40,001 nt of DNA from Clostridia bacterium. Lineage in GTDB: Bacteria > Bacillota > Clostridia > Christensenellales > Aristaeellaceae. A program made the translations under genes and the position numbers. Of the stretch, positions 153-38,872 are shown piece after piece. The stretch spans positions 5,128-45,128 of the forward strand of contig JAUNDF010000002.1 of assembly GCA_030526225.1 (NCBI GenBank). The letters are read 5' to 3'. The notes beneath the pieces are model-generated. The model was not told where the DNA came from. It searched no databases and saw only the letters and a program-made list of their open reading frames with translations. Each line of letters opens with the position of its first letter. Within the stretch, counting starts at the first letter, position 1.

Positions 153-1388
153 TTAGTGATGCATGCGGCCCTTGCCGAACAGGCTGCGGCGGCCGCCGTA
201 GGGGGTCATGCTGCCTGCCACCTGCGGGGTCAGGGCAGGGGCGGTCAGGCTGCGGTTCTTGGTAACGTTCAGCACCAGACCCACGCCCAGCATGTTGGTC
301 ATCATGTTGGAGCCGCCGTAGGAAATAAACGGCAGCGGGATGCCGGTAATGGGCATCAGGCCCATGGTCATGCCCATGTTCTCAAACACGTGGAACAGCA
401 GCATGCCCATCACGCCGATAATCACCAGCCGGCCGAACTTGTCGCGGGTGTAGGCGGACAGGTACAGCATCCGCAGGATAATCAGGAAGAAGACAATCAT
501 GATGCCCACACAGCCCACAAAGCCCCATGCCTCGCCGATGGTGGCGAAGATGAAGTCCGTCCAGTCGGCGGGCACGTAGTTCAGCTGGCTGATGGAGCCA
601 TCCACAAACATGCCGATGCCGGTCAGGCCGCCGGAGCCGATGGCTGTCTGGCTCTGCAAAACCTGATACGCGTCGGTGGAGGAATACAATTCGGGGTTGA
701 TGAAGGCCAGAATGCGGGCCAGACGGTAGCTGTCCGCGTTGGTGGCCACGGTAAAGCCGTACAGGGCGGCGATGCCGATGACGGCCACACCGGCCATGCC
801 CATCAGCAGACGGAAGTCCACGTTGGCAAAGAACAGCATCACGGCGAAGAAGAAAATAATCACCAGAACGCTGCCCATTTCGCCGGACATCAGGGTAACA
901 AAGGTGGGGATGGCGACAATCAGCATCACCCGGAAAAACTCCTGCACATTGCCCATGGGCTTTTCCGACTGGGAAAGAACACGGGACAGCATCAGAATCA
1001 TGGCCAGCTTGATGAACTATGACGGCTGCAGCGTCATGCCCCAAATGATGTCCAGCCACGCCTTCACGCCCTCGGCACGGTTCAGCACCCACACAAGGGT
1101 CAGGAAGATGGTGCCGCCCCAGTAGAAGATGGGCGTGTAGCGGCGCAGAAAGTCGTAGGGAATCAGGAGCAGTACGGAAAGCACCACAGGACCCAGCGCC
1201 AGGAATACGCACTGTTTCACCGCGTAGGAGGATTCCACGATGCGGTTGAGCAGTGAGCCTGTGGGGGCCGAGTCCACGGTGTAGGTAGCGACACACACTG
1301 CCAGCACACCGAAGACGGCCAGACTGAATACAAGCAGAATCAGCGGCACGTCCACATGGGCCCGTGAATGTCTGTTTTCAACGATCAA
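153..1388 (-). CDS. rodA: SEDS-family peptidoglycan polymerase RodA/FtsW, with one in-frame TAG at 1017-1019
   Basis: ORFs 1017-1388 and 153-1001 share a frame (1388-1001=387). Read on the minus strand the junction is ...GMTLQPS-TAG-FIKLAMILML. It carries the SEDS motifs QPS(E)F and PFISYGGS. The start is a TTG overlapping the minD TGA (TTGA). The true stop is TAA. Confidence 0.85.
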
Positions 1389-2194
1389 AGCTTGTTGACC
1401 TCCTTGTGCTTGCGGCCAAAGAGCCGGGAGAAGAAGCCGGGCTTGCGCACGCCGTAGGCGGGGAAGGGCTCATCCATGCCCTCCATGCGCGCGGCAATGC
1501 GGGTGAGGGCATAGCGGGCCTCGCAGTCGCACTGCATCAGCGGCTTGTGGTTAATCAGGCTCCGGTATACCACCGGGTCCCGGGGCACCTCGCCCAAAAG
1601 GGGCAGGTCCAGGGTCTGGGATACCACGGCGGCGGAGTACATTTCCCCTGCATCAATCAGCTCGCTGTCCAGCATGTTGACAACAAGGCGCGGGGAGGGC
1701 ATGTCCTTGCCCTGCAGCACGGAGGCGGTGCGCTCCACGTTGCGGATGCACACATCGTCCGGGGTGCTGATGAGGATGGTTTCGTCCGTGTGCTTGTTCA
1801 GCAGCCCGCGAAGGCCGCGCTCGATGCCGGCGGGGCAGTCAATGAGCACATGGTCAAAGCTGAGCTTCAGCTGGCCAATCAGCTTCATAAATGCCTTTTT
1901 GTCCAGATCCTTGCTGCGGGCAAACTGGGCGGCGGGGACGAGGAACAGGTTGGTGTAATCGCCGTGGCGAATCAGGGCCTAATCCATGCGGCAGCGCTTT
2001 TCCAGCACATCCAGCAAATCGTAGACCACCCGGTTTTCCACGCCCAGAATCACATCCTGATCGCGCAGGCCGATATCGGCATCCACAATGCAGCAGCGGC
2101 AGCCCCGCTGGCTGAGCGCGGCGCCCAGCGCGGCCGTTACGGTGGATTTGCCAACGCCGCCCTTGCCGGATGCAATGATCCATGCTTTGCCCAT
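1385..2194 (-). CDS. minD: Septum site-determining ATPase MinD, with one in-frame TAG at 1979-1981
   Basis: Deviant Walker A SGKGGVGKS, Walker B region LIDCPAG and a C-terminal amphipathic GFFSRLFG are present. ORFs 1979-2194 and 1385-1888 share a frame. The junction ...EKRCRMD-TAG-ALIRHGDYTNLFLVPAAQ... is collinear with B. subtilis MinD EGRCKMHQALVKDKRF. Stop is TGA. Confidence 0.85.
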
Positions 2195-2239
2195 GTGTGT
2201 TCCCTCCTGTATGTTGAGTGTGGGTTGGGGGATGCTGTG

Positions 2240-4804
2240 TTACGGGGCCACGGAGTTGCCGGTGGGCAGATCGTAATCCACCGTGCGCAGCTCTTCCTGG
2301 TTGAGGTACCAGTCCAGGAACTCTCTGGCGGCCATGGAGGCTTCACCGCCGGAATATCCGTTGGGGATAAACACCGCGATGGCAACCTCAGGTTTCTCGT
2401 AGGGGGCGAAGGTTACGAACCAGGCATTGTTCTCAAGGTCGATGGAGGTAACCTGAGCGGTACCGGTTTTTGCGCAGATTTCATCCCGGTATTTCCAGCC
2501 CTTGAAGTACTTGGCAGCAGTACCTGATTCGTCAACTACGCCCTTCATCCCCTTCTTGATGTAGGGCAGGTATTCCTCTGCGTTTTCCAGCACGTTGATG
2601 AGCGTAGGCTCGCGCTGGGAGAGGATTTCGCCCTCGGGGGAGATGATGGAGTCGATGATGGAAACGTTGTACACATAGCCGCCGTTGGCCAGGGCGCATA
2701 CATAGCGCGCAACGGCGACGGGGGTGACGGTGGTAACCGACTGGCCGATGGCCGTCAGAATGGTCTGGGCGCCGCCCCACTTGATGTCGTTCATGTAGTT
2801 GTACGTATCACCGATGACGGACTGCAGGTAGACCATTTCCTTGGTCATGTTCAGCTCTTCCATCAGGATGGTACGCATGTTGTCCAGCCAGTAGCTTTCA
2901 TCGTAGTTGACGGCCATGTCCATCAGGCGCTTGGCGCAGGCGGACAGACGGGCATCATCATAGGAAAGGTTTCTGGAGGCACCGCAGTTGCGCAGGTGCT
3001 TTTTGATGGAGTTGAAAACGATGATGGGCAGGGAGGTATCCTGACTGGCCTCGTTCATGGCCTTGGTGGTATCGTACAGGGTGTTCTGGCTGCCCACCAC
3101 GCTGCGGACCTCACCGGGCAGGTCGATGCCGGTTTTGCTGGTCAGGCCGAAGAGGGAGGCGTAGTGGTACAGCCGCTGCTCGCCCAAACGGCTGCCCAGC
3201 TCGTAGAAGAAGTAGTTGCAGGAGTTGGACAGACCCTCCACAATCGTCTGGTTTTGATGCTTCCAGCGGTTGCCCTTGCCAATCCAGCATTTGGGAGCGG
3301 TGGATTCGTCCTTGTTGTACTTGGTGTAGTAGCCCTGGTCGGTGATGCGCTCCTTCACCGTCAGCTCGCCCTCGCACAAGGCGCCCATGCTGGTGACCAT
3401 TTTGAAAATGGAGCCGGGGGTTCCGCGGGCGTGGATGCCGTAGTTGAGCAGCAGGTTGCGTTCATCGGCAAGGATGGTGATGGCTTCCTTGCCGCCGGCC
3501 ACCAGCGCATTCAGGTCGTAGGTGGGGTAGTTGGCCATGGCCAGCACCCGGTCCTCCATATCCAGAATGACCATACAGCCGTGCTCGGCCAGGGACATGG
3601 GGTAGGTGACCCAGTTGCGGTTGGCGATGTCCTCTTTGTTGTCCTCCAGCCAGGAGTCGGAGACCATCAGCTTTTCCTGATTGTCACGGGTGTTGTTGAC
3701 GTTGGCGGCAATGGCGCGCTCGGCCACCTCCTGATAGGAGGCATGGAGGGTCAGCTTGATGTTGTTGCCGTCCTGGGGGGCGGTGTAGCTCAGCTCGCGG
3801 ACCACGCGGCTCATGTTGTCGCGCTCCACCACGCGCTGGCCCTGACGCAGGTAGCTGTTCTGGGTCAGCCAGTCCTCCATGGAGGATTCGATGCCGTCGC
3901 GGCCGATGGTGTCATTGTACGAATAGCCCTTGGCCCGCAGGGTTTCCCACATGGCCTGGGAGGGGATGGCGCCGGTGTAGCCGATAATCTGGCTGGCAAG
4001 GGTTCGCTTGGGGTACACGCGCTTGGTGCCCACCTGAATTTCCATGCCCACCAGCATCATGGAGCGGGTCTCCACCTCGATGACTGTTTCGTACTTCACG
4101 TTCTGGGCGATGACGATGGGCTGGGAGGAGAACACGTTCATCTGCATTTCGCAGTAGATGGCCATGACCTTCAGCATGGTTTCCTCATCCAGAATGTGAA
4201 CGGGGGTGTACTTTTCGCCCTCCAGCTCCTTCAGGGGCTCGATTTCGCTGGCATCGTTGACAATGCGGAAGCGCTGCTTGAGCAGGTTGATGCACTTTTC
4301 CGCCGTGTCGTACTTGGTCATGCTGGTCAGGTAGTTGTTGCTGCGCCACTGGCGCTCACGCTTGGCCAGTACGCTGTCGGATACGCCGGAGCCGAAGTTG
4401 AACTCCCACTCGTTTGTTTCCGGATTGCGCTGAATGACAAAGTCAATGGCCATGGTACCGCCGTTGCGCTCGATGATTTCAATGGTGTCCACAATGGACT
4501 GGGTAAAGGCGGTGTATTCCCTGCGGGAATTCTGGGAGGCATCCTTGTAGAAGGTGACGTTGTAAATCAGCTCGTCCTCAGCCAGCAGCACGGAGTCCGC
4601 ATCGATGATGGAGCCGCGCTTGCCGCGCAGCACCACGGTTTTGGTGCGGGTGCTTTCCGCCTTGTCCGCATATTCCTCGCTGGATTTCAGCTGCAGGTTC
4701 ACAAGGCCGCTGACAAGGTAGGCGAACATCAGCAGCAGAATCACCACAAACAGGACATACCGCCACAGGATTCCCCGGGTGGCAGGGTTTGATGAACGGG
4801 CCAA
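2240..4804 (-). CDS. mrdA: Penicillin-binding protein 2 (elongasome class B transpeptidase)
   Basis: 854-aa ORF with an N-terminal TM helix and the transpeptidase motifs SxxK (GSIFK), SxN (SNS) and KTGT. A TTG start lies 6 nt after AGGAGG. Stop is TAA. It sits between mreD and minD. Confidence 0.9.
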   Translation of the reverse strand: MARSSNPATRGILWRYVLFVVILLLMFAYLVSGLVNLQLKSSEEYADKAESTRTKTVVLRGKRGSIIDADSVLLAEDELIYNVTFYKDASQNSRREYTAFTQSIVDTIEIIERNGGTMAIDFVIQRNPETNEWEFNFGSGVSDSVLAKRERQWRSNNYLTSMTKYDTAEKCINLLKQRFRIVNDASEIEPLKELEGEKYTPVHILDEETMLKVMAIYCEMQMNVFSSQPIVIAQNVKYETVIEVETRSMMLVGMEIQVGTKRVYPKRTLASQIIGYTGAIPSQAMWETLRAKGYSYNDTIGRDGIESSMEDWLTQNSYLRQGQRVVERDNMSRVVRELSYTAPQDGNNIKLTLHASYQEVAERAIAANVNNTRDNQEKLMVSDSWLEDNKEDIANRNWVTYPMSLAEHGCMVILDMEDRVLAMANYPTYDLNALVAGGKEAITILADERNLLLNYGIHARGTPGSIFKMVTSMGALCEGELTVKERITDQGYYTKYNKDESTAPKCWIGKGNRWKHQNQTIVEGLSNSCNYFFYELGSRLGEQRLYHYASLFGLTSKTGIDLPGEVRSVVGSQNTLYDTTKAMNEASQDTSLPIIVFNSIKKHLRNCGASRNLSYDDARLSACAKRLMDMAVNYDESYWLDNMRTILMEELNMTKEMVYLQSVIGDTYNYMNDIKWGGAQTILTAIGQSVTTVTPVAVARYVCALANGGYVYNVSIIDSIISPEGEILSQREPTLINVLENAEEYLPYIKKGMKGVVDESGTAAKYFKGWKYRDEICAKTGTAQVTSIDLENNAWFVTFAPYEKPEVAIAVFIPNGYSGGEASMAAREFLDWYLNQEELRTVDYDLPTGNSVAP

Positions 4805-4865
4805 CAGCGACCTCCTTTCTGTCCCCGGGGGCGAAAGCCGCAGGGACGCGTATTTCTGCCCGGGC

Positions 4866-5657
4866 TTACATGGCGTTCATGTAGCGGCCGCGGGCCTGTT
4901 TCTTTTCCTTGGGGGGCTTTTTGAAGCCCAGCATCCGGCGCACGGGCACCATCATCAGGATGGTGAGCACCGTGGTGTAGATCACAGCGCCGATAGCCCG
5001 GCCGTAGTGCACCGGCATCAGGGCAATGCCGCCGATGTACAGGTACAGCATGTGCACCACCTCGTACAGCAGCTGGCAGCAGGCGGCGCAAAGGGGCGTG
5101 CGCAGGTAGGGATGCATGTTGTGGGCCGAGGGATTGCTGGCCCGCTCCGCTTCCAGCCTCTTTTCACTCTTGTCGGCAAAGAATACCGACATGAACAGCG
5201 CCAGAATCGGGTACATCAGCAGATAGAAGAAAATCATGGGCTTCATCATTGCATCGGTGATGATGCCAAAGCAAGCGCCCGCCCAGTAGGCGCGGAGCAT
5301 GCCGTGGCACACGATGACGATGGCTATAACGGCCAGCATCACATTGGGGGTTACGCCGCCCATGGCCAGATAGGGCACGATGCACACCTGACACAGGTAT
5401 GCCAGCAGCACCACCAGCCAGAAGCGAACCAGCCGCATGATGCCGCGGAAGCAGCGGCTGACAAAGCCCAGAAAGCCCGTGCGCTGCTTTTCCTTTTTCA
5501 GGGCAGCCCGGTCGGTGGTGCGCAGGGTATCCGCCTGCCTTGTCCTGATGCCGACAGCCAGGGGATTCTCCGCTGCTTTCCCGGCAAGGGAAAAGCGGGA
5601 TTTCCCCTGCTCTGCCTGGGGGATGTCCTGGCCGGGCTGTCTTGTGATATCAGCCAT
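4866..5657 (-). CDS. mreD: Rod shape-determining protein MreD (start uncertain; an internal ATG at 5438 is possible)
   Basis: The C-terminal two thirds is polytopic and hydrophobic, and the gene sits directly after mreC. The ATG at 5657 lies 3 nt downstream of the mreC stop. The 73-aa N-terminal extension is basic and low in complexity. Confidence 0.7.
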   Translation of the reverse strand: MADITRQPGQDIPQAEQGKSRFSLAGKAAENPLAVGIRTRQADTLRTTDRAALKKEKQRTGFLGFVSRCFRGIMRLVRFWLVVLLAYLCQVCIVPYLAMGGVTPNVMLAVIAIVIVCHGMLRAYWAGACFGIITDAMMKPMIFFYLLMYPILALFMSVFFADKSEKRLEAERASNPSAHNMHPYLRTPLCAACCQLLYEVVHMLYLYIGGIALMPVHYGRAIGAVIYTTVLTILMMVPVRRMLGFKKPPKEKKQARGRYMNAM

Positions 5658-5660
5658 GGA

Positions 5661-7226
5661 TCAGTCCTCCTCCCAGGTCATGGTGGCAGGATCGGGGGTG
5701 ACATAGGGTGTGGGCGTGGGGCTGGGTGCTTCGGTGGGCACCTCCGTGGGCCCGAAGCTGACGGGGTTGTACTCGTACACCACCGGGGCCGGTGTGGGCA
5801 CCGGGGTGATGGTGGGCTCGGGGGTGGGCTCCGGCGTGGGTTCCGGCGTGGGAGAGGGGGTCACCTCAACCATTTCCATGGGGATGGGTGTTTCGCCGAA
5901 GGTGGAGCCGCCGATGCGCAGGGTCGGGTAGGGGCGGGCGGTGGGCAGCTCGGCATACTCCATGTTGGCATATGCGGAGGTGCGGCCGGTCACCGCCTCG
6001 GCTGCGGGCTTGTAGCGCAGGACAATCACGTATTCGATGTGCTCAAAGTCCACATAGGGCTGCACCACGATGTACTGCTTGTTGCTCTCCATGCCGCGGG
6101 TACTTTCGCGGACTGTGCCGATGGGGATGCCCTTGGGGAAGGACATGCCCACGCCGGAGGTGACCACCACGTCGCCGGGGCGGGGCAGGTGATCGTCGGA
6201 GAGGTAGTACATGCGGCACATGTAGGTGCCGTCAATGCCCAGGGTGCCGGAAACGGTGCCCTGATCGCGGCTGGACTGAATCAGCGCGGCGATGGAGGCA
6301 TCGCTGTCGATAATACAACGGACGTCGGCGGTGGTTTCTTTCACGTTTTCCGTATAACCCACCAGTGCGCCGGAGATGGTTACGGCCATGTAGTCCTCAA
6401 TGCCGTCACGCTTGCCGCGGTTGATGGTCATGGTGGAGAAATAGCTGTTGTCACCACGGCCGATGATGGCGCAGGTGATGGGGTTCATGGCCGTGTTGGA
6501 CTGAACCTCATCGTTGATGTTTTCGTACTGGTTCAGGCGGATTTGCAGCTCCTCGGCCAGCATGGCCTCATAGGTGAGGCGCTCGTTTTCCGCGCGCAGG
6601 TCGTTGTAGGCCACCTCGATGTTGGACCGCAGCTTCAGCTGGCGCAGATACCCGGCCACACCCTCGGTGATGGTGGAGAAGAAGCTCTGCACGGGGGTCA
6701 TGGCCCCGGCCACCGCATCCTCGGGAATGCCAAGGAAGCTGAGGTTGGAAATGTGGGAGAAGAACATAAAGCCCAGCACCGCCGTCAGCATCAGGGTGAT
6801 GATGACGATGAACAGCGTCCGCAGCTTTTTGGGGGTGCGGGCGGCGGAATCATCCTTTTTGGGGCGGCGGTCTTCCTCATCCATGCTGCCGTATTTCTGC
6901 CGCATTTTTCTGGTCAGGGCATCGCCGCTGTCCTGTTCATCCCGGAAGGCAGAGGCCGGGTCATCGGCGTAATCATCCGGTGCGGCCATGATATCGGGGA
7001 TGGACGGGGAGCCGTCATCCTCGTCCTCCTCCATCAGGTCGGCATCATCGGGGATGTGCTTTTCCCGGCTGATGCCCTCATCGGCATAGCCGCTGGAGCC
7101 CATGGAGAAGGAATAGCCCAGACCGCCGTCATCCCGCATATCATCATAGATAAAATCATCATACGCCGGGGCGGCGGGGGTATGCTCATTGCTGCCGCTG
7201 TTTTTGCGGAAGGGATTTCTTGCCAT
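5661..7226 (-). CDS. mreC: Rod shape-determining protein MreC (long form, with an acidic N-terminal and a Pro/Thr-rich C-terminal extension)
   Basis: 521 aa with a TM segment, a coiled coil and an MreC beta-barrel core (VVTSGVGMSFPKGIPIGTV). Located between mreB and mreD. Stop is TGA. Confidence 0.85.
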   Translation of the reverse strand: MARNPFRKNSGSNEHTPAAPAYDDFIYDDMRDDGGLGYSFSMGSSGYADEGISREKHIPDDADLMEEDEDDGSPSIPDIMAAPDDYADDPASAFRDEQDSGDALTRKMRQKYGSMDEEDRRPKKDDSAARTPKKLRTLFIVIITLMLTAVLGFMFFSHISNLSFLGIPEDAVAGAMTPVQSFFSTITEGVAGYLRQLKLRSNIEVAYNDLRAENERLTYEAMLAEELQIRLNQYENINDEVQSNTAMNPITCAIIGRGDNSYFSTMTINRGKRDGIEDYMAVTISGALVGYTENVKETTADVRCIIDSDASIAALIQSSRDQGTVSGTLGIDGTYMCRMYYLSDDHLPRPGDVVVTSGVGMSFPKGIPIGTVRESTRGMESNKQYIVVQPYVDFEHIEYVIVLRYKPAAEAVTGRTSAYANMEYAELPTARPYPTLRIGGSTFGETPIPMEMVEVTPSPTPEPTPEPTPEPTITPVPTPAPVVYEYNPVSFGPTEVPTEAPSPTPTPYVTPDPATMTWEED

Positions 7227-7247
7227 TGTGTCACCTCGAAGGGTCGG

Positions 7248-8270
7248 TTATTCTTCTGCCGTCTGCCCGGAGAAGGACATGAGCAGGTTCATGTTTTCCA
7301 CCAGATAGCCCAGACCCATGATGGTGCAGTCCATGGGCTCACGGGCCAGCAGCACGGGGATGTTCAGCTCCTCGGCAATAAACTGGTCCATGCCGTACAG
7401 CTGGGTGCCGCCGCCGGTGAGGTGGATGCCGCCGCGCATGATGTCGCCGGCCAGCTCCGGGGGCGTGCGCTCCAGCACCCACTTGATGGCCGTCAGCACG
7501 GATTGGCAGGGGTCGCGCAGCGCCTCGTAGCACTGCTGGGTATCAAAGATGACCTCCTTGGCGTTGTGGGGGCCGGTGCCGTAGGGGGTGCCTACGATTT
7601 TGCTGCGGGTGTTGTGGCTCAGGGGGATGGCGGTGCCAAAGTCCTTCTTCAGCTTTTCCGCCGTGCGGATGCCGATGGAGACCTTGTGCTCCCGCAGGAT
7701 GTAGGCGGCGATGGCCTCGTCCATCTTGTTGCCGCCCAGCCGCACGGAATGGGCCACCACCATGCCGCCCAGGGAGACCAGGGCCACATCCGTGGTGCCG
7801 CCGCCGATATCCACCACCATGCTGCCCACCGGCTCATACACCGGCAGACCGCTGCCGATGGCGGCCGCATAGGGCTTTTCTACCAGGAATACGTGCTTTA
7901 CGCCGGCCTGATGGGCGGCCTCCTCCACGGCGCGGCGCTCGACCGCAGACAGGGTGGAGGGCACGGCGATGACGGCCTTGGGCTTCATGAAATGGCTGGA
8001 GCCGATGGCCTTGCGAATCAGGCTCTTGAGCAGGGCGGCGGTCATTTCAAAATCCACAATGGAGCCGTTGCGCAGGGGAAACACGGTTTCCAGCTGGTCA
8101 TTTACGCGGCCGAACATCACATAGGCATCATCGCCCACAGCCACCACCAGCCGCTTGTTTTTCGCGTCCCGCACGATGATGCTGGGCTCGCTGACCACCA
8201 CGCCGCGGCCGCGCACGTAGATGGTTGTATTGGAAGTACCTAAATCGATACCGATTTCGGGTGAGAACAT
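7248..8270 (-). CDS. mreB: Actin-like rod shape protein MreB
   Basis: 340 aa with the ASKHA motifs GIDLGTSNT, VVDIGGGTTDVA and IHLTGGG. Confidence 0.95.
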   Translation of the reverse strand: MFSPEIGIDLGTSNTTIYVRGRGVVVSEPSIIVRDAKNKRLVVAVGDDAYVMFGRVNDQLETVFPLRNGSIVDFEMTAALLKSLIRKAIGSSHFMKPKAVIAVPSTLSAVERRAVEEAAHQAGVKHVFLVEKPYAAAIGSGLPVYEPVGSMVVDIGGGTTDVALVSLGGMVVAHSVRLGGNKMDEAIAAYILREHKVSIGIRTAEKLKKDFGTAIPLSHNTRSKIVGTPYGTGPHNAKEVIFDTQQCYEALRDPCQSVLTAIKWVLERTPPELAGDIMRGGIHLTGGGTQLYGMDQFIAEELNIPVLLAREPMDCTIMGLGYLVENMNLLMSFSGQTAEE

Positions 8271-8310
8271 ATTTGATTGTTACCTCTCAGTCTTGTCTGT
8301 CACGAAGGAT

Positions 8311-8883
8311 TCAGGGCAGTATCTCGATGCCGCTTTCTTCCAGCAGCCTGCGGGTCAGGTCCAAAGGCAGGCCAATGACGCAGGAGGAGCTGCCGCGGAT
8401 CTGGTCAATCCACAGGCCCGCTGCGCCCTGCAGTGCATAGGCACCGGCCTTGTCCATGGGCTCGCCGGTGGCGATATAGCGGCGGATTTCTTCATCGGTC
8501 ATGTGGGTAAAGTGCACATCCGTCACGTCGGTGCCGGTGTGCATCAGCCCGCTGCTGTCGCAGACCACCACGCCTGTGCAGACCTGGTGCCAGCGATTGC
8601 GCAGGGAGGAGAGCATGCGGAAGGCATCCGCCTCATCCCGGGGCTTGCCAAGGGGCGTGTCATCCACAAACACAAGGGTGTCGGAGGCCAGCACCGTGCA
8701 GCCGGGGTGTGCCTTGGCAATGGCGGCTGCCTTTCTGCGGCTGATTTCCACCACCGCCTCCTTCATGGGCAGGGCGCAGCTTTCGTCCACATCGGCGGAT
8801 TCCACGGTAAAGGGAACGCCGGTCAGGGCCAGCAGCTCGCGTCTGCGGGGGGAAGCGGATGCCAGAATCAGTTGCGTGTTCAT
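8311..8883 (-). CDS. maf: Maf-like nucleoside triphosphate pyrophosphatase / septum formation protein
   Basis: 190 aa with LILASASPRRRELL and GAYALQG. It is the first gene of the maf-mreBCD cluster. Confidence 0.9.
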   Translation of the reverse strand: MNTQLILASASPRRRELLALTGVPFTVESADVDESCALPMKEAVVEISRRKAAAIAKAHPGCTVLASDTLVFVDDTPLGKPRDEADAFRMLSSLRNRWHQVCTGVVVCDSSGLMHTGTDVTDVHFTHMTDEEIRRYIATGEPMDKAGAYALQGAAGLWIDQIRGSSSCVIGLPLDLTRRLLEESGIEILP

Positions 8884-8931
8884 ACATTACCTCCGGGCTT
8901 GATGGCGTATGGTGATATCAAGCCATCTTGT

Positions 8932-8962
8932 ATTATAGCACAATCCCGGCGGGATTTGTGAA
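8932..8962 (-). promoter_or_regulatory. Candidate sigma-A promoter of the maf-mre operon, with a palindrome in the spacer
   Basis: The minus strand reads TTCACA-(19 nt)-TGcTATAAT, an extended -10 whose hexamer is at 8932-8937. The spacer contains the perfect palindrome aatcccg-c-cgggatt (8942-8956). It lies about 45 nt upstream of the maf ATG. Confidence 0.4.
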
Positions 8963-9368: not shown

Positions 9369-9371
9369 GGC

Positions 9372-9402: not shown

Positions 9403-9415
9403 TTGTGGGGTGCGA

Positions 9416-11164: not shown

Positions 11165-11186
11165 GTTCTTTTCCTCCCTCGCACGA

Positions 11187-13959: not shown

Positions 13960-13971
13960 GGCAAATCAACC

Positions 13972-29889: not shown

Positions 29890-29910
29890 CCGATTCGTAA
29901 GGAGATTAGC

Positions 29911-30909
29911 ATGAAAAGATTGTTTGCGGCGGTGCTGGCCATGGTGCTGGCGCTGTCCCTGACCTGTGCCCATGGCGATATCCTCCCCGATACCGCCCCG
30001 CTGGGCCTTTCCTTTGATGTCAACGCCGCGGAATGGGAGCCGGATTTGATGTTCCTCGACTCTGCGGCGGCAGACAAGAGCTATGTGCTGCTGTATGCCA
30101 TGTACATCAACAGCGCCGTGATGGACCCGCTGGCGGATGCCTATTAGCAGGCCTATGAAGCCGGTGACGAGGCCGGGGCAGAAGCGGCCCTGACGGCGTA
30201 CCGGCAGGCACAGACGGCCAATTCCGCTGTGTGCGGCATGCTGGTGGGCTTTGAAAAATCACAGGCGGATGCGCTGAAGGCAGAAATCTTCGGGGATGCC
30301 CAGCTGACAAAGGTGGGCGAAAGCAGCACCCATGTGTACTACAAAATCGTGGCCGAGGAGCCTGACGAAGCCCTTTCCCCGGAGAATCAGGCAGAGATGG
30401 TCAAGGCCATCGCCCTGACAAAGCAGGTCTTCGATGCGGCACAGGTGGTTGAAATCACCGAGGAAAGCTATACCGGCACATCCATCGGCGCCTTCTCCAC
30501 CCGGGATCTGCAGGGCAGTGAGGTGACGGATGACATCTTCGCACAGGCGGATTTGACCGTGCTCAACGTGTGGGCCACCACCTGCCCGCCCTGCATCCGC
30601 GAGATGCCCGAGCTGGAGGCATGGTCCCATGATCTGCCCGAAAATGTACAGGTCATCGGCCTTGTGATTGACGTAAGCGACACCTCCGGCAAGGTGTATG
30701 ACACCGCCATGACCATCATCGGCAAAACCGGCGTCACCTACCGCAACCTGATGATGGACCGCTCCCTGACGGGCTTTGTCAGCGGCATCATCGGCACCCC
30801 CACCACCTTCTTTGTGGATAAGGACGGCCGTCAGGTGTGCGAGCCTGTGGTGGGTGCGTATATGGACATGTACAGGCAGAACGTGACTGACTGGCTTTCC
30901 GGCCGGTAA
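29911..30909 (+). CDS. TlpA/ResA-like thioredoxin-fold lipoprotein, with one in-frame TAG at 30145-30147
   Basis: Signal peptide MKRLFAAVLAMVLALSLTC and active site WATTCPPC. ORFs 29911-30147 and 30229-30909 share a frame (318 nt apart). The junction reads ...DPLADAY-TAG-QAYEAGDEAG. Confidence 0.75.
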
Positions 30910-30918
30910 GGAAAAACG

Positions 30919-31080
30919 ATGAACAAGCATGCGATAAAAAACCTTGTGTGGATAGCGCTGCTTATCCTTGCCGCGGGGATGATATGCTTCGGCTGTCTGG
31001 AAACCTTTGCCCGTGAGGAATGGCGGCTGGTGCTGGACAAGGCAATCAACATCTGCTTTGAGTGCATCGGATTGGGGTGA
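30919..31080 (+). CDS. Small membrane CXXC peptide (53 aa; CD1871A-like)
   Basis: This ORF is below the track length cutoff: MNKHAIKNLVWIALLILAAGMICFGCLETFAREEWRLVLDKAINICFECIGLG. It has one TM helix plus CFGC and CFEC, and sits tightly between the TlpA-like and 4Fe-4S genes. The family name is from memory. Confidence 0.55.
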   Translation: MNKHAIKNLVWIALLILAAGMICFGCLETFAREEWRLVLDKAINICFECIGLG

Positions 31081-31086
31081 CGGCGG

Positions 31087-31992
31087 ATGAAAAAATGGCG
31101 GTCCCTGCTTTCACGCCTGAAGGAGCGCCCCCTGCGGCAGGCCATCCGCCGCAAGGCACTGCAAATGGCGGCCTTCGGCTTTACCAATGCGGATTTGGGC
31201 AACTTCGCCAGGGGCGTCATCAACAAGGGACCATGGAAGAAATTCTGCGCCCCGGGCATGAACTGCTACTCCTGCCCGGCGGCAAGGTTTGCCTGCCCCA
31301 TCGGCGCATTGCAGGCGGTAGGCGGCAGCATGAACTTCCGCTTCAGCTTTTACGTGGTGGGCTTTCTGTTGGCCGTGGGTGTGCTCATTGGCCGGCTGGT
31401 GTGCGGCTTTCTGTGCCCCTTCGGGCTTTTGCAGGAGCTGCTGCACAAAATCCCCACGAAGAAATTCCACCTGTGGAAGCCCCTGCGGTATGTCAAGTAT
31501 GTGTTTTTGGCAGTGATGGTCTTTCTGCTGCCGGTCATGGCAACGGATTTTCTGGGCATGGGTGACCCGTGGTACTGCAGGCTGATTTGCCCCGTCGGTA
31601 CGCTGGAGGGCGGCATTCCTTTGCTGGCCGCCAACGAGAGCCTGCAGCGTCTTGCCGGTCCCCTGTTCTGGTGGAAGATATTCCTGCTGGCCGTGACGGT
31701 TGTGTTCAGTGTGCTGATTTGCCGCTTCTTCTGCAAGGTAGGCTGCCCTCTGGGCGCCTTCTACGGCCTGCTCAACCGCTTCAGTGCCTATCACCTTGAG
31801 GTGGATGATGACAAGTGCATCCGCTGCGGCCGGTGTGAGCGGGAATGCCCCATGGAAATCGACCCCACGAAAACCCCCAACAGCCCCGAGTGCATCCGCT
31901 GCGGTCACTGCCGCGCCATATGCCCCGCGGAGGCGATTTGCTTCCGGTTTGGGTATGGGGGGAAGGGAAATAAAATAAAAAAGGAACCGTGA
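31087..31992 (+). CDS. Polytopic membrane 4Fe-4S binding protein (NapH/MauN-like)
   Basis: 301 aa with repeated CP(F/V/L)G motifs in the TM region and two CIRCGxCxxxCP ferredoxin motifs. Confidence 0.8.
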   Translation: MKKWRSLLSRLKERPLRQAIRRKALQMAAFGFTNADLGNFARGVINKGPWKKFCAPGMNCYSCPAARFACPIGALQAVGGSMNFRFSFYVVGFLLAVGVLIGRLVCGFLCPFGLLQELLHKIPTKKFHLWKPLRYVKYVFLAVMVFLLPVMATDFLGMGDPWYCRLICPVGTLEGGIPLLAANESLQRLAGPLFWWKIFLLAVTVVFSVLICRFFCKVGCPLGAFYGLLNRFSAYHLEVDDDKCIRCGRCERECPMEIDPTKTPNSPECIRCGHCRAICPAEAICFRFGYGGKGNKIKKEP

Positions 31993-32005
31993 ACACTTCT
32001 CACAG

Positions 32006-32076
32006 TTCCTGAAAGGACCTCATCCGTCACGCCGCAAGCGGCGCGCCGCCTTTCCCAACGGGGGAAGGCTTTTTTA
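32006..32076 (+). terminator. Solo repeat arm whose terminal hairpin plus T-run acts as a rho-independent terminator
   Basis: The stem gcctttccc-aacg-ggggaaggc (32048-32069) is followed by TTTTTT. The preceding 40 nt match 17931-17975 with one substitution. Confidence 0.7.
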
Positions 32077-32084
32077 TTTACCCA

Positions 32085-32468
32085 TCAGTGGCACCCATGG
32101 CTTCCGCAGGAATGCTCACCGCAGGAATGCCCGCTGCCGTGATGATTGCAGTTCACGCCGCTGTTGACCAGCTTGCCTGCCAGATAATCGGCTACTGCCT
32201 TGTCGGCATCGCCGCTCTGGCCTGCACACAGGGTGATGCCGGCCTCGCTCAGGGCAGCCTGTGCGCCGCCGCCGATGCCGCCGCAGATGAGCACATCCAC
32301 CTTGTAGCCGGACAGCAGGGCGGCCAGTGCGCCGTGCCCCTGACCATTGCTGCCCACAACCACCGCGGTGGTTACCTGATTGTTCTCAACCTCGTAGACC
32401 TTGAAGGATTCGGTGTGACCGAAATGCTGGAAAATATTGCCGTTTTCATAAGTGACTGCGATGCGCAT
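32085..32468 (-). CDS. NifB/NifX-family (dinitrogenase FeMo-cofactor-binding-like) domain protein with a His/Cys-rich tail
   Basis: I place the start at MRIAVTYENG, after GGAGGAAAAAA. It carries FGHTESFKVYEV and the C-terminal tail NCNHHGSGHSCGEHSCGSHGCH. Confidence 0.75.
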   Translation of the reverse strand: MRIAVTYENGNIFQHFGHTESFKVYEVENNQVTTAVVVGSNGQGHGALAALLSGYKVDVLICGGIGGGAQAALSEAGITLCAGQSGDADKAVADYLAGKLVNSGVNCNHHGSGHSCGEHSCGSHGCH

Positions 32469-32547
32469 GATTTTTTCCTCCTGAATATGTCTGTAGGCGG
32501 GATTTTGTCCGCAGGGACAGTATAGCATCACCGTATGGGAAATGCAA

Positions 32548-34062
32548 TCAGTCCGGCTGCACCAGCCTTGCCATCTGCTGCTCCAGCAGCTGATAGAACT
32601 GCCCGAGCTGTCTGCCGTCCACCAGCGCGTGGTGGCACAGCACGGTGACGGGCATTATCCACCGCCCGGCAGCATCCTGCGTGTATTTTCCCCAGGTGAT
32701 GCGGGGGTTGCTGTCATCCCCGGTGGGCTGGATGAGGGCGGTATAGCTCAGCCACGGCAGGCAGGAGATGAAGTACAGCCCCTCGCTGTTTTCATCCTCC
32801 GAAAGTCCCGATTGCTGTCGGCTTGCTTCCTGCGCGGCCTTTGCTTCCCTGAGATAGGTTTCCAATGGCAGATGATGGTTCAGCGTGCAGTACACATAGG
32901 TGCCGTCGGGCATGCTCTCCGTGTGGGAGGTGCCGCAGCGGCTGTATTCCACAATGCTGTCGCCGCGGATGCGCTGGCGAAATTGCGGGATGTCATCCGC
33001 CGCCAAGGCCGCCGCGTGAAGGAACATTAGGAAAAAGGAAATGCCGCGGGCCTTGCACCGGTCCTTCAGGGCGGTGACATCCACCTGAACGGTGGTGCCC
33101 ACATAGGGGTTGGCCATGGTGCGGAAGTAGTCGAAGTGGGTTTTGCGGGGATAGGCGGCCATGTCCACCGGACGGTAGAGGGGCGGACGATACACTACCT
33201 CGAATTCCTCCAGCACACAGTCGCCGTGCCGGTCAAAGGGCAGACCGGCGGCTTCGTAATCGGGGGTGAAAAAGCGGAGATGCACCTCCCGCCATTTTTC
33301 CAGACTGCGGTCATCCTCGCCCTCGCGGAAGGCGTGGGCCGGGCTGACTTCGTCAAAGGGCACCACGCTGACCTTTGTATCCCGGATGATGCAGGCGGCC
33401 TCATCGTTATCAAACAGAACCACGCTGAGGCACCCGACCTTCGGAATGGGCTCGCCCTCGGTCCGGTAGGCAATCATGGCGCTGGCGGTGGCTGTTTTGA
33501 TGCCGGCCAGCACAAGGTCAGCCAGCTCATCTGCCGCAGGTCCGCCGCCGCAGAATTTCCATGTGTCGTGGGGGGTATCGGTGCTGATGCCGGAGGCCTG
33601 ACAATAGGATAGCCACAATGCTTCGCCGGTCATGGTGCTTCGTTCCTTTCCTTGATGTAATACACGGATTCCGCATCCCTTTCGGTAGAAGCGGTTGGTG
33701 CGCCGGTTGCAGGCGGGGGTATCCAGCCGGAAGGCCGGGGCTTGCGGGAACAATGCTTCCACGGCTTCCATCAGCCGGATGCCCAGCCCCTGCCGGTGGT
33801 GTGCAGGGTCGACGAAGATGCGCCCGATGAACACGCCCTCATCCCCCTCAAAGAGGATGGCACCGCCGAGAATGGTGCCGCTGTCATCGGCAAAGGTGTA
33901 CAGGTGATGCTCCTGCCGCATCTGCTCGTGCCAGTGGGGATTGTCATAGTCCGGCGGACCGCCGGGGGAATCCATGCCTACGGATACATCCGTGTCAAAG
34001 GCGGCTTTGGAGATGGCGGTGAGAGCGGCCACTTCCTCGGGCAAAGATGGGTACAGCTTCAT
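32548..34062 (-). CDS. Three-domain fusion: GNAT acetyltransferase, ASCH domain and chloramphenicol-acetyltransferase-like domain
   Basis: A single 504-aa ORF with no stops. The GNAT core is RIFVDPAHHRQGLG..RFY. The ASCH part starts at MTGEALWLSY...LAGIKTATAS. The CAT-like part runs YPRKTHFDYF...LCHHALVDG. Confidence 0.7.
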   Translation of the reverse strand: MKLYPSLPEEVAALTAISKAAFDTDVSVGMDSPGGPPDYDNPHWHEQMRQEHHLYTFADDSGTILGGAILFEGDEGVFIGRIFVDPAHHRQGLGIRLMEAVEALFPQAPAFRLDTPACNRRTNRFYRKGCGIRVLHQGKERSTMTGEALWLSYCQASGISTDTPHDTWKFCGGGPAADELADLVLAGIKTATASAMIAYRTEGEPIPKVGCLSVVLFDNDEAACIIRDTKVSVVPFDEVSPAHAFREGEDDRSLEKWREVHLRFFTPDYEAAGLPFDRHGDCVLEEFEVVYRPPLYRPVDMAAYPRKTHFDYFRTMANPYVGTTVQVDVTALKDRCKARGISFFLMFLHAAALAADDIPQFRQRIRGDSIVEYSRCGTSHTESMPDGTYVYCTLNHHLPLETYLREAKAAQEASRQQSGLSEDENSEGLYFISCLPWLSYTALIQPTGDDSNPRITWGKYTQDAAGRWIMPVTVLCHHALVDGRQLGQFYQLLEQQMARLVQPD

Positions 34063-34197
34063 GGACGGCTCCTTTCTGTCAGGAACAGGCGTGAAATCAG
34101 TTGTGTGTCTGTGTGTTCATATTGTAGCCTCCGGGGCGGGAGCGTGTCAACAAAAAGGTGCTGTGAAAAATCACAGTGAATGGATAATGCCCCGGAA

Positions 34198-34345
34198 GAC
34201 CTCTTCCGACTTCGCTGCGCTCAGCCACCCTCCCCAGCGGGGAAGGTTGATAATTGTGCTTGCATATGGTTGCAAATATGACCTTTTTGAACCAAATAAA
34301 AAACCTTCCCCGCTGGGGAAGGTGCCCCGAAGGGGCGGAAGAGGT
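34198..34345. repeat. MITE-like element: about 45-bp hairpin-bearing terminal inverted repeats around an AT-rich core
   Basis: The left arm is gacctcttccgacttcgctgcgctcagccaccctccccagcggggaaggt. The reverse complement of the right arm is gacctcttccgccccttcggggcaccttccccagcggggaaggt. The core is tgataattgtgcttgcatatggttgcaaatatgacctttttgaaccaaataaaaa. Confidence 0.75.
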
Positions 34346-34365
34346 CCCATGAACGCGTATAAACC

Positions 34366-35022
34366 TTACATCATCTTCTGTTCGTTGAACATCAGCTGGA
34401 AGTGCAGCCCCAGGGACTCGGCGGCCTTCTGGCACAGCTGCATGCGCTCCATAAAAATCTGGAAATAATCCATGGCGGAGCTGTAGTGGGTGTCCACGGT
34501 CAGCTTCAGCTTGATGAGCGTGTGGGCCTCGTTGATTTTCAGCTCCGTTTTGGTGACAGAGTAATTAACCCGGTCGTGGATGTCGAAGGTGCTCTTGTCA
34601 TCGTTGCGCACACGGCTGCGGCGCACATCGCTCTTATCGGCCAGAATCAGCGCGGCGGCCATGGGGCTGACGGGCATGCCGTTGCCCTCGTCATGGTTGC
34701 CGATGGCGGCAGCGATATCGGCGATGTCCTCCATGGGCATGCCCATTTTGTCCAGCAGGCGGAAGGCCATCAGCGCGCCGCTCTGGCTGTGATCCACCCG
34801 GTTGATGAGGTTGCCGATGTCATGGAGCCATGCGGCAATGCGGGCCTTTTCCACCAGCTCCGCCGGATAGCCCAGGGTGGTGAGGATGTAGCCGCAGCGG
34901 TCGGCCACGGAGCCCACATGGGCAAAGGAATGCTCGGTGTAGCCAAGGGTGCCCAGGGTTGCGTCCGCCTTTTCAATCAGCATGCGGACGGTTTCGTTGT
35001 GTTTGATTTCTTCAAAGGTCAT
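34366..35022 (-). CDS. HD-domain phosphohydrolase
   Basis: 218 aa with HSFAHV and WLHDIGN. Confidence 0.8.
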   Translation of the reverse strand: MTFEEIKHNETVRMLIEKADATLGTLGYTEHSFAHVGSVADRCGYILTTLGYPAELVEKARIAAWLHDIGNLINRVDHSQSGALMAFRLLDKMGMPMEDIADIAAAIGNHDEGNGMPVSPMAAALILADKSDVRRSRVRNDDKSTFDIHDRVNYSVTKTELKINEAHTLIKLKLTVDTHYSSAMDYFQIFMERMQLCQKAAESLGLHFQLMFNEQKMM

Positions 35023-35047
35023 AATCTATCTCCTGTGGATGTGTTGT

Positions 35048-36394
35048 TCAGAACCGGACGGTAATGGCGGTGCCCTTGCCCTCTTCGCTCTCCAGCTTGA
35101 TGTCGGCGCTGTGGATTTCGGCAATGTGCTTGACGATGCTCAGGCCCAGACCGGTGCCGCCGGTTTCCCGGGAGCGGCTCTTGTCCACCCGGTAGAAGCG
35201 CTCGAACACGCGGCTTTGCTGCTCCTTCGGGATGCCGATGCCGCTGTCGGATACGGTGAGGATGGCGTGGCTGTTCTCCGAGGAGACCTTCACCCGCACC
35301 CAGCCGCCGTCACGGTTGTAGCGGATGGCGTTCTGCAGCAGGTTCTCCAGAAGCTCCTTCAGCTGTTCGCGGTCGCCGGTGAGCATGGTATCCGTGCCGA
35401 TGCAGCTGATGGTGATGTTCCTTTGAGCGGCGGTGATACGCAGGGTGCGCACACAGTCCAGCGCCAGCTTGTACAGGTTCAGGTGCTCGAATTTGTGGGG
35501 CAGCTACTGATGGTCCAGCTCGCTGAGGCGGATGATGTCGTTGATCAGGCTCAGCAGACGGTCGGCATTTTGGTGAATCTGCCCGGCGATTCTGCCGGAC
35601 TGGTCCGGGGGCACCATGCCCGCTTCAATCAGCTCTGCATAGCCGGAAATGGCGGTGAGGGGCGTTTTCAGCTCGTGGGAGATGTTGGCGGTAAAATCCT
35701 GCCGGCTTTTGACGGAGGACAGCAGCTTGTCGTGCTGGCTGCGGATTTTATCCGCAAAGGGCTCCAGCTCCCGGTATTCCATGGGGTCGATGTGGTCCAG
35801 ATGCTCGGCCATCTTGTTGATGGGGCGGATGAGCTGCACCGTCAGCAGATGACCGATGACGATGCACAGCCCCATGATGACGGCCAGAATCACCACCATC
35901 ACCGGCAGGGCGGAAAGCATCACGCTGATGATGGACCGTGCCTCGGTGGATACGCGCAGAACCGTGCTGTCCGGCAGGAGCAGCGCGTAATAGAAGGTGG
36001 ACATGTTCTGCGTGGAGGAGGTGCGGGTGCTTTCACCAGTGCCCTGCGCCAGGGCAGCGGTGATTTCCGGGCGGTCCAGGTGGTTGCCCAGGGCATCGGC
36101 GTTGGTATCGTTGTCATACAGCACACGGCCGTCATGATCCACCCAGGTGATGCGCAGACCGTCCACATGCATGGCAGCCATGGGGGACAGGTCGATGGCG
36201 TCCGGGTTGCCGCCGGCCTTTTCGTAGGCGGTCTGGAAAATCCCCGTGCCGGAAAGCATCCGGGCGTTGGTGGCAAGGTCCATGCGGACCCGGCCCACGA
36301 AAATGTTGTAGTACACAAAGGTCAGGGCGGCGGTGGTGGCCAAAATGGCAATCAGCGCAATCAGCCCCAGCCGCAGGTTGATTTTCTGCTTCAT
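35048..36394 (-). CDS. PhoR-like sensor histidine kinase, with one in-frame TAG at 35504-35506
   Basis: It has two TM segments, the H-box SHELKTPLTAI, the N box LLQNAIRYN, and G boxes DSGIGIP and GGTGLGLSI. ORFs 35504-36394 and 35048-35452 share a frame (942 nt apart). The junction reads ...LSELDHQ-TAG-LPHKFEHLNLYKLALD. Confidence 0.8.
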
Positions 36395-36398
36395 CGGG

Positions 36399-37082
36399 TC
36401 ACTGCCCCTTTTCCTCCGAAATCACGTAGCCCACGTTGCGCACGGTGCCGATGAGGCTGCCGCACTCGCCCAGCTTCTGGCGCAGTGTCTTGATGTGCAT
36501 ATCCACCGTGCGGGATTCGCCCTCGTAATCCGTGCCCCATACAAACAGCATGATGGTATCGCGGCTGAGGACGATGCCCTCGTTGAGCATCAGGTAGCGC
36601 AGCAGCTCGTATTCCTTGTAGGTCAGTTCAATCTGTCTGCCGGCGGCGGTGACGATGTGGCGGTCGTGGTCCAGGGTGATGCCGCCCACCTGCAGCAGCT
36701 TCGGTGCCTCCTCCTGGGAGCGGCGCAGCAGGGCGCGCACCCGGCTGAGCAGCTCCATCACCGAGAAGGGCTTTTTGATGTAGTCATCCGCGCCGTCATC
36801 CAGCCCCTTGACCAGGTCCATTTCCGTGGTTTTGGCGGTGACCATAATCACGGGAATCCGGGCGGTTTTGCTGCTCTTGCGCAGCTTGCGCACAATGTCA
36901 TAGCCGCTTTCATCCGGCAGCATAATGTCCAGCAGAATCAGGTCGGGGAGGATTTCGTTCATCCGGGCATAAAAATCCGCGGCACGGTCAAAGCCCTGCA
37001 CCATGTAGTTGCTGTTCTTCAGGGCAATCATCTCGATTTCGCGGATGGATACGTCATCCTCCACCACATAAATCAGCGGCAT
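36399..37082 (-). CDS. OmpR/PhoB-family response regulator
   Basis: 227 aa with a receiver domain (DDxxxRE..LLDIMLPDESG) and a winged-helix output (TVDMHIKTLRQKL..VGY). Confidence 0.9.
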   Translation of the reverse strand: MPLIYVVEDDVSIREIEMIALKNSNYMVQGFDRAADFYARMNEILPDLILLDIMLPDESGYDIVRKLRKSSKTARIPVIMVTAKTTEMDLVKGLDDGADDYIKKPFSVMELLSRVRALLRRSQEEAPKLLQVGGITLDHDRHIVTAAGRQIELTYKEYELLRYLMLNEGIVLSRDTIMLFVWGTDYEGESRTVDMHIKTLRQKLGECGSLIGTVRNVGYVISEEKGQ

Positions 37083-37093
37083 ATTTTGTCACC

Positions 37094-38872
37094 TCATCCG
37101 TTCTGCACCGGCAGGGTATAATGCCGGCGGCACTTCTTATATTCTTCGGCAAACCAGGGGGCTTCTCCTTTTACGGCGGTGTATTTGTGGGTGCCGAATT
37201 CGTCATGGGCGGTTTCAATCAGGCACACGGCCACATTGGAGCAGTGGTCGGATACGCGCTCGTGGTCGGTGATGATGTCCTCCAGCACAAGGCCTGCCTC
37301 CATGGAGCAGCGGCCGGTGCGAAGGCGGGCGATGTGGCGCTGCTTCATTTCGTCCCGCAGGTCATCCACCACCTGTTCCAGCGGCTATACGCTCCTGGCC
37401 AGCAGGGTGTCCCCGTCGGCAAACACGGTGACGGTCAAATCAAGAATGTCCGACACGGCGCGGCCGAAGGCGGTCAGCTCGTCCATGGCATCATCCGACA
37501 GGGTGATGCCCTTCTCCCGCAGCTCCCGGGCGGATTCCACCATGTTCATCGCGTGGTCGGAGATGCGCTCGAAATCGGAGATGGAGTGCAGCAGCTGGCT
37601 GAGCAGCTTGCTGTCCTCCAGCGCCAGATCGTGGCCGGAAAGCTTGACCAGATAGCTGCCCAATGCATCCTCATAGCGGTCGCACAGCTTTTCCATGGCC
37701 AGCACCTCACCGGCCTTTGCTTCATCAAACCTGTACAGCACCTGCATGCCCGTGCGGAAGGCCTTGCGGGCGGTATCCGCCATTTCATCCGCGGCATTTT
37801 TGCACAGGCGGATGGCGAAGGAGGGCTGGTCGAGGAAGCGCTCGTCCAATGCGGCCAGCACGGCAGGCTGCTGCACGGCGGGCTTTGCATCGCCCTTGTC
37901 GGGGATGGTCTTCTCCGCCATCTTCACCAGCAGATTGCCGAAGGGGAACAGAATCAGGGTGCAGCCGACATTGAACACGGTGTGCATCAGGGCGATGCCT
38001 GCCGCGCCCACGGCTTCATCCAGGAAGGGCATGGGGACAAACAGCTTCGCGCCGTAGAAGCCGGCCATAAACAGCACCGAGCCGATGACGTTGTAATACA
38101 GGTGAATCATGGCGGCGCGCCGGGCATTTTTGCTGGCACCGGCCGAGGAAAGAATGGCGGTGACGCAGGTGCCGATGTTCTGCCCCAGAATGATGGGCAG
38201 CGCCGTGCCCCAGGTAACCATGCCGGTCATGCACAATGCCTGCAGAATACCCACCGAGGCAGAGGAGGACTGAATCACGGCCGTGAGCACTGCACCGGCC
38301 AGCACGCCCAGAATGGGGTTGGAGAAGGCTGTGAGCAGGCCGGTGAAGTTGGGGTCATCCTTCAGGGGAGAGACAGCGCCGGACATGGTTTCCATGCCGG
38401 TCATCAGCACCGTGAAGCCGAGGAAGATGGTGCCGACAGTCTTCTTTTTGCTGCCCTCTTTGGCGGTCATCAGCAGAATGATGCCGATCAGCGCCAGCAC
38501 AGGGGAGAAGGAGGAGGGCTTCAGCAGCCGGATGAAAATGTTGGTGCCGGAGATGCCTGCCAGGGACAGAATCCAGCTGGTCACCGTGGTGCCGATGTTG
38601 GCGCCCATGATGATGCCTACCGCCTGCCCCAGCTTCATGATGCCGGCGTTGACAAAGCCCACCACCATCACCGTGGTGGCAGAGGAGGACTGAATCACCG
38701 CCGTGACCACCATGCCCAGCAGCAGGGCGGCAAAGCGGTTTTTCGTCAGCTTTTCAAGAATTTTCTCCAGCCGTCCGCCGGAGAGCTGGACCAGACCGTC
38801 GCCCATCACCTTCATGCCGTACAGGAACAGGGCAAGGCCGCCTGCCATGGTCAAAACATGGAAAATATCCAT
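37094..38872 (-). CDS. Na/Pi cotransporter family protein with C-terminal PhoU-like repeats, with one in-frame TAG at 37385-37387
   Basis: It carries GANIGTTVTSW and GQNIGTCVTA, then PhoU-like FERISDH and ERVSDHCSN. ORFs 37385-38872 and 37094-37372 share a frame (1500 nt apart). The junction reads ...TLLARSV-TAG-PLEQVVDDLRDEMK. Confidence 0.8.

Follow-up and report, generated by a model that had tools for sequence, protein, structure and literature searches.

In-frame TAG codons and their probable reading as glutamate in a Clostridia bacterium and two related lineages

Genes and in-frame TAG codons of the window

The DNA considered here is a stretch of 40,001 nucleotides (positions 5,128 to 45,128 of contig JAUNDF010000002.1; hereafter the window) from a metagenome-assembled genome (MAG) held at NCBI as 'Clostridia bacterium' (GCA_030526225.1). 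It has a G+C content of 60% and the content of a bacterial chromosome, with rodA, minD, mreBCD, a PBP2-type gene, ilvE (whose product is MDO4482968.1) and a hydrogenase operon. The subject of this work is the codon TAG, which stands in frame within several genes of the window, among them rodA and minD, and for which the comparisons reported below point to a reading as glutamate. Genes were called with TAG read as sense, and real genes were separated from shadow frames by their codon-position G+C (GC1/GC2/GC3 of about 0.6/0.4/0.8 in the window genes). The resulting 35 genes comprise 12,058 codons, in which TAG stands in frame 11 times and TAA and TGA never, and they show no frameshifts. These TAGs are spread over nine of the 35 genes (Table 1), each of which becomes a single open frame when TAG is read as sense. 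A preliminary description of the same DNA had listed 11 in-frame TAGs in nine genes and no other interruptions, and all 11 were recovered here at the same positions. It had also counted 38 gene ends (24 TGA and 14 TAA) with no TAG among them; the absence of TAG and the 14 TAA ends stand, whereas the recount gives 35 ends with 21 TGA, a small difference in gene calling.

As a codon TAG is rare, being used 11 times in the window against 473 for GAG and 326 for GAA. This amounts to 0.9 per 1000 codons, in line with the earlier estimate of a rare sense codon used about once per thousand. The coding G+C pattern persists for 29 to 553 codons past each in-frame TAG. Single Pfam domain matches span the TAG in RodA (FTSW_RODA_SPOVE, residues 6-368), MinD (ParA, residues 5-234) and the HydS-like protein (Fe_hyd_lg_C, residues 76-304), and alignments to PDB entries also run across TAG sites. 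For full-length products, rodA, minD and seven other genes need UAG to be translated. A further TAG, at 35026, is noncoding and lies between the stop of the histidine kinase gene and the start of an HD-domain gene. The palindrome CTAG does not occur in the 40,001 bases, whose plus strand has TAG 188 times and CTA 60 times, and no C stands before any of the 11 in-frame TAGs.

Table 1. Coding context and in-frame TAG sites of the window, with the Logan contig that covers each site
Feature	Coordinates	Strand	Context	Logan contig
35 window genes	153..39974		coding context; ends: 21 TGA, 14 TAA, 0 TAG	
rodA TAG	1017..1019	-	gene ~153-1352; at Glu of SEDS 'QPSE' motif	L083
minD TAG	1979..1981	-	gene 1385-2194; between Walker A and Walker B	L083
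PHP-domain gene TAG	14723..14725	-	gene 14633-15346; 29 codons ahead of TGA stop	
HydS-like sensory [FeFe]-hydrogenase TAG	16194..16196	-	gene 15729-17027	L085
346-codon hypothetical TAG	22608..22610	-	gene 21999-23039; adjoins ilvE	
Protein B, first TAG	27836..27838	+	gene 26345-29500; large hypothetical	L084
Protein B, second TAG	27992..27994	+	homolog column poorly aligned	L084
Protein B, third TAG	28610..28612	+	gene 26345-29500	L084
TlpA-like or redoxin lipoprotein TAG	30145..30147	+	gene 29911-30909; N-terminal region	L084
Histidine kinase TAG	35504..35506	-	gene 35048-36394; between HisKA and HATPase_c	
Na/Pi cotransporter TAG	37385..37387	-	gene 37094-38872; second PhoU domain	L081

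As a check for artefacts at the level of the assembly, the window of the NCBI MAG was compared with Logan contigs of run SRR24915835, which come from a different pipeline. The Logan contigs are 100% identical to the window over positions 118-2923, 16117-17416, 23548-32035 and 35563-38680, ranges that cover eight of the 11 TAG sites; these contigs are short, and none reaches past the window. The TAGs are thus real and not an artefact of assembly, an explanation that the preliminary description had named as one that would undo its reading. The NCBI annotation, made with the standard bacterial code (code 11), cuts the PHP protein at its TAG and yields a product of 207 aa (P0139), against 232-234 aa in homologs. 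Split pieces of protein B, TlpA and MinD are listed as separate 'proteins' in protein libraries (P0372, P0384, P0385, P0410, P0439 and P0502).

Homolog columns, relatives with in-frame TAG and outgroups

Alignment columns at the TAG sites were drawn from a collection of 5.8 billion proteins with fused segment queries, the MinD column being obtained with a fused query to a representative library. Glutamate is the assigned meaning because TAGs sit in invariant or near-invariant Glu columns of these homologs. The PHP column has Glu in all 12 full-length homologs, the HydS-like column in 107 of 107 (with Asp in hydrogenases of the PDB), and the Na/Pi-PhoU column has 117 Glu and three Asp among 120 homologs. 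At the QPSE motif of RodA, Glu is found in E. coli MrdB and in T. thermophilus RodA, and the codon is GAA (Glu) in the relative L082, the sole locus obtained from a scan of metagenome contigs with MinD (64% identity). In the kinase, the codon is GAG (Glu) in the L086/L087/L088 lineage and GAA (Glu) in the L089 lineage, the nearest relatives described below; distant kinases of the PDB have T or S in this column. These two lineages have GAA and GAG, respectively, at the Na/Pi site of the window. One single amino acid, as expected of a reassigned codon, is therefore found at the HydS-like, PHP, Na/Pi and RodA QPSE sites and, in the nearest relatives, at the kinase site. A conservative, Codetta-like calculation over nine TAG columns gave a posterior of 0.9998 for Glu and 0.0002 for Gln. 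UAG is very probably a sense codon for glutamate in this uncultivated Clostridia organism, which is related to gut and rumen MAGs of the Christensenellales type. At least two other lineages, of about equal divergence, share the trait, so that the change is probably an inherited one of a small clade.

Evidence that the trait is shared came from the Na/Pi cotransporter, since the two nearest homologs of its C-terminus are truncated proteins, and the contigs of these proteins share the gene order PhoU, Na/Pi, response regulator and kinase with the window. The L086/L087/L088 lineage (54-55% G+C) has one TAG in the Na/Pi gene, identical across three SRA runs (SRR21150829, SRR19135267 and SRR19135263), and one in the kinase gene, and the L089 lineage (ENA ERZ27234661, 51% G+C) has one TAG, in the Na/Pi gene. 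At this locus the TAG sites of the relatives differ in position from those of the window. Since in-frame TAGs also occur, at different sites, in two other lineages, the trait belongs to a clade and is not confined to a single MAG. TAG densities are similar throughout, with 0.9 per 1000 codons in the window, 1.3 in L086-L088 (two in 1485 codons) and 1.0 in L089 (one in 1035). The relation between TAG and Glu codons is also found in the reciprocal direction, the TAG of L089 being aligned to GAG both in the window and in L086. Of five sites that can be compared within the clade, three show TAG exchanged with GAG or GAA and one shows it exchanged with CAG. The recoded relatives have six complete genes, and TAG is the stop of none of them. 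The three lineages are roughly equidistant from each other: their response regulators are 82-84% identical and their kinases 65-72%.

Truncated homologs served as a marker of recoding for P0253 and P0254, in which TAG is the cause of the truncation, and two further candidates were rejected. The truncation of P0235 (locus L090) reflects a scaffold gap: at about 9415-10705 of L090 (ENA ERZ28576369) the HydS-like gene is split by a run of N with a change of frame, which calls for caution with truncated proteins in databases. The truncation of P0289 (locus L091, ENA ERZ922481) has another cause. In this standard-code organism of 44% G+C, the Na/Pi gene (6461-8148 of L091), which ends in TAG, has lost about 29 codons and is split by this deletion and a frameshift. 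The clusters P0274, P0276 and P0289 start at the same internal position, suggesting that a lesion of the L091 type is conserved.

Outgroups were taken from a scan of genome contigs with IlvE, which gave 80 loci (the best of them 84% identical) and in which synteny reached one TAG site; all 80 use the standard code. In the 43 family-level ilvE loci L001-L043, from Christensenellales-type rumen and gut MAGs with IlvE 75-84% identical to that of the window, about 58,500 residues aligned to window proteins contain one TAG, probably upstream of a start codon, where about 53 would be expected at the density of the window. The same loci contain genuine TAG terminators, which are followed by the ribosome-binding site and ATG of the next gene, and L090 and L091 also have genes ending in TAG. 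In-frame TAG is accordingly common to the window, L086-L088 and L089, and absent from L001-L043, L090 and L091, where TAG is a stop. An all-against-all BLAST of open reading frames called with TAG as sense returned matches in relatives, mostly with 'TAG aligned to Q', which were rejected, once their translations had been inspected, as antisense frames of real genes in which the Leu codons CTA and CTG are read backwards. TAG makes up about 4% of gene ends in L001-L043 (about 20 of about 480 called genes) and about 10% in more distant Oscillospiraceae-type loci. This scarcity of TAG at gene ends in sister lineages fits codon capture and may have been a precondition for reassignment.

Several features of the locus stand apart from the question of decoding. 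The hydrogenase genes at 9416-17923 comprise a bifurcating [FeFe]-hydrogenase cluster of the hydABC type and, after it, a sensory module that resembles hfs. This regulatory module consists of HATPase, NuoE-like, PHP, DRTGG, HydS-like, HATPase and DRTGG genes and contains two of the 11 TAGs. The HydS-like protein of the window is 75-80% identical to all of its relatives (P0132-P0251), which share 80-100% among themselves; the lineage of the window forms a long branch, possibly through accelerated evolution in a recoded lineage. At 24471-29889 the genes of two large hypothetical proteins overlap, 'protein A' (about 625 aa) and 'protein B' (1051 aa). Neither has a Pfam domain, and a small gene with a resolvase-N domain comes after them. 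Homologs of protein B have 1000-1750 aa, and protein B alone holds three of the 11 TAGs. Additionally, two intergenic regions share a direct repeat, whose 38-bp core (TTCCTGAAAGGACCTCATCCGTCACGCCGCAAGCGGCG) is identical at 17931-17968 and 32006-32043. Similarity between the two copies reaches about 17975 and about 32050 (about 48 bp), and no match of this kind is expected by chance; the core holds a GCCGC-AAG-CGGCG hairpin, and one Logan contig breaks at one copy.

Alternative explanations and decoding machinery

A number of results weigh against the reading of UAG as glutamate or limit its reach. The minD column has Gln in 42 of 50 cluster representatives; in the nearest clade it is variable (E, Q, A, K, R, S and D), and its nearest representative, P0453, has Glu. 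The column at 22608 is also variable, with Gln in 19 of 41 relatives, Glu in eight, Ala in five, Lys in two and others in the rest. In protein B, the column at 27836 has R 18, E 13, T 12 and Q 7, that at 27992 is mostly Tyr (Y 35, gap 13, S 11, F 6 and L 6), and that at 28610 has A 14, P 13, E 11, L 11 and D 10. The homolog search gave no informative homologs that cover the TlpA-like site at 30145. About 43 kb of the recoded clade has been sampled in all. The preliminary description had used the absence of TAG from the gene ends of the window as support. This absence holds for the 35 window genes and for six genes of relatives, but it is weak evidence: if TAG makes up about 4% of gene ends, as in relatives with the standard code, 35 genes would all lack it with a probability of 0.96^35, or about 0.24. 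No tRNA gene was found in the window or in the 91 loci, so that the decoding machinery is something we infer.

The TAGs could be lesions or artefacts, arising from recent pseudogenisation or from errors of sequencing or assembly, and the truncated genes of the code 11 annotation (P0139) are what one would then see. Pseudogenisation is marked by mixed stops, frameshifts and relaxed constraint downstream, and the preliminary description had pointed to TAA, TGA or frameshift disruptions at a similar rate as its sign; over the 12,058 codons, however, the only interruption is TAG, with the G+C pattern and the homology kept after it. The mutation models tried put the probability that eleven random nonsense mutations would all be TAG at 2e-3 to 2e-5. 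If Glu codons had been hit by a G-to-T process, GAA would likewise have become TAA; the chance of seeing no such case is 0.59^11, about 0.003, from the codon counts. Moreover, a second assembler gave the identical sequence at eight sites, the Na/Pi TAG of one relative recurs in three sequencing runs, and two other lineages have in-frame TAGs at sites of their own. A sequence motif shared around the 11 TAGs, sought as a sign of miscalls induced by base modification, was not found, and an origin in lesions or errors is on this evidence extremely improbable. If the codon is translated, it might be as glutamine through a tRNA-Gln with anticodon CUA, a reading known from TAG-recoded phages and from many codes of eukaryotes. 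CAG becomes TAG by one transition, L082 has CAG at the minD site, and the minD column and the column at 22608 both favour Gln. Glutamine is nonetheless very unlikely, given that four sites lie in invariant or near-invariant Glu columns and a fifth has Glu in both nearest relatives, that its posterior is 2e-4, and that the swaps within the clade involve GAG or GAA more often than CAG. Pyrrolysine, or another non-canonical residue inserted genome-wide, would make a bacterial counterpart of the archaeal Code 34, in which the same codon, TAG, has become pyrrolysine; pyl genes occur in some bacteria of the class Clostridia. Its positions would be expected to lack one canonical residue, but the TAGs coincide with strictly conserved Glu, including that of the QPSE motif, which would be unexpected for a bulky lysine derivative. 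There are, in addition, no pyl genes or methylamine methyltransferases within the window, and this possibility has next to nothing to recommend it.

The alternative that deserves more attention is that decoding is ambiguous, with release factor 1 (RF1) kept and UAG acting both as a stop and as glutamate through an efficient natural amber suppressor tRNA, as an intermediate stage. Such a state would suit a codon as rare as TAG, at about one per 1000 codons, and relatives with the standard code that still stop at TAG. It is unlikely, however, as nine of the 35 genes, including rodA and minD, would depend on read-through and no gene end in any of the three lineages is TAG. The persistence of the trait in lineages whose proteins share only 65-84% identity argues instead for a stable state.

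The reading of UAG as sense, whether by reassignment or by constitutive suppression, had already been put forward in the preliminary description and is supported by the Glu columns, the relatives and the identity of the Logan contigs. Decoding of UAG as glutamate would then be either a full reassignment or a very efficient suppression with RF1 retained. It would involve a tRNA with anticodon CUA charged with glutamate, for which the simplest source would be a duplicated tRNA-Glu recognised by the glutamyl-tRNA synthetase (GluRS). Under full reassignment, RF1 would have been lost or would no longer terminate at UAG, leaving release factor 2 (RF2) to read UAA and UGA; with TAG terminators scarce throughout the family, the switch would have cost little. 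Neither a release-factor gene, sought by release-factor motifs, nor any Rfam family was found in the window or the fetched loci.

Known codes and significance

UAG has been reassigned in phages, eukaryotes and organelles and, to pyrrolysine, in archaea. In bacteria, the stop-codon reassignments reported in the literature searched, up to August 2026, are all of UGA, to Trp or Gly, and no earlier report of TAG as Glu, nor any paper on the sequencing runs used here, was found there, in agreement with the preliminary description, to which sense decoding of UAG appeared to be undescribed for a Clostridia-like chromosome. The change of UGA to Trp (code 4) is found in Mycoplasmatota, Hodgkinia, Nasuia and, as of 2026, some Eggerthellaceae, and that of UGA to Gly (code 25) in Gracilibacteria and Absconditabacteria. 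Sister lineages of bacteria with a reassigned UGA already made little use of that codon to end genes (PMC13462651), as those of the present clade do of TAG. The present case resembles these codes in that a stop would have become sense genome-wide in a monophyletic group, with a mutated tRNA and loss of the cognate release factor as the expected changes. It differs from them in the codon, UAG, so that RF1 and not RF2 would be affected, in the amino acid, Glu, and in its setting, a region of 60% G+C with ordinary gene content instead of a reduced, AT-rich genome.

The same amino acid is specified by UAG in the eukaryotic codes in which both UAA and UAG (UAR) have become Glu, described in peritrich ciliates and Blastocrithidia (PMC12153298), and in the literature to August 2026 UAG as Glu is known only jointly with UAA, in some ciliates and trypanosomatids. 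These codes (codes 30 and 31) change the meaning of UAA as well, whereas in the window TAA never occurs in frame and ends 14 of the 35 genes. In archaea, a code in which all TAG is pyrrolysine (Code 34) has been described as the first alternative code of that domain (Kivenson et al., bioRxiv 10.1101/2024.09.30.615893). Like the present case, it has TAG as a rare sense codon scattered in ordinary genes and lacks TAG terminators. Unlike it, the reading proposed here concerns a canonical amino acid, Glu, in bacteria, and its distribution looks clade-like and not sporadic.

TAG-recoded phages with a code resembling code 15, in which TAG is read as Gln, have reportedly been described by Ivanova (2014) and Borges (2022). 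They likewise provide TAG as sense in sequences of the gut microbiome, but they are viral and usually read the codon as Gln by means of phage-borne suppressor tRNAs, whereas the window has the chromosomal housekeeping genes listed at the outset and columns that favour Glu over Gln. An engineered counterpart is the E. coli strain C321.deltaA, from which all TAG codons are said to have been removed and RF1 deleted (see also PMC11903333). As in that strain, UAG would be freed from termination for a tRNA with anticodon CUA, and the organism studied here would be a natural analogue if RF1 has been lost. The strain, however, is synthetic and has no amino acid assigned to UAG unless a suppressor is supplied, whereas the change in these Clostridia would have evolved naturally.

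This is probably the first natural bacterial reassignment of UAG, to glutamate, in a small clade of uncultivated Clostridia from gut- or rumen-type settings that has no fewer than three lineages at the level of genus, presumably by way of a tRNA-Glu(CUA) and the loss or retuning of RF1. If true, UAG as Glu in Clostridia of a free-living type with 60% G+C would add an entry to the tables of genetic codes. To our knowledge, a code with TAG as Glu has not been tried by current code predictors. In public annotations that use code 11, about one gene in four of such genomes is cut short or split, the PHP protein of 207 aa being one example, which distorts estimates of completeness, counts of pseudogenes and metabolic reconstructions. 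A naturally evolved pair of tRNA(CUA) and GluRS would be of interest for genetic code expansion. For the biology of these organisms, the finding would mean that termination by RF1 at UAG is dispensable in nature, beyond engineered E. coli, and the clade would provide a test case for the course of a reassignment, in which the TAG ends of about 4% in its sisters fit codon capture.

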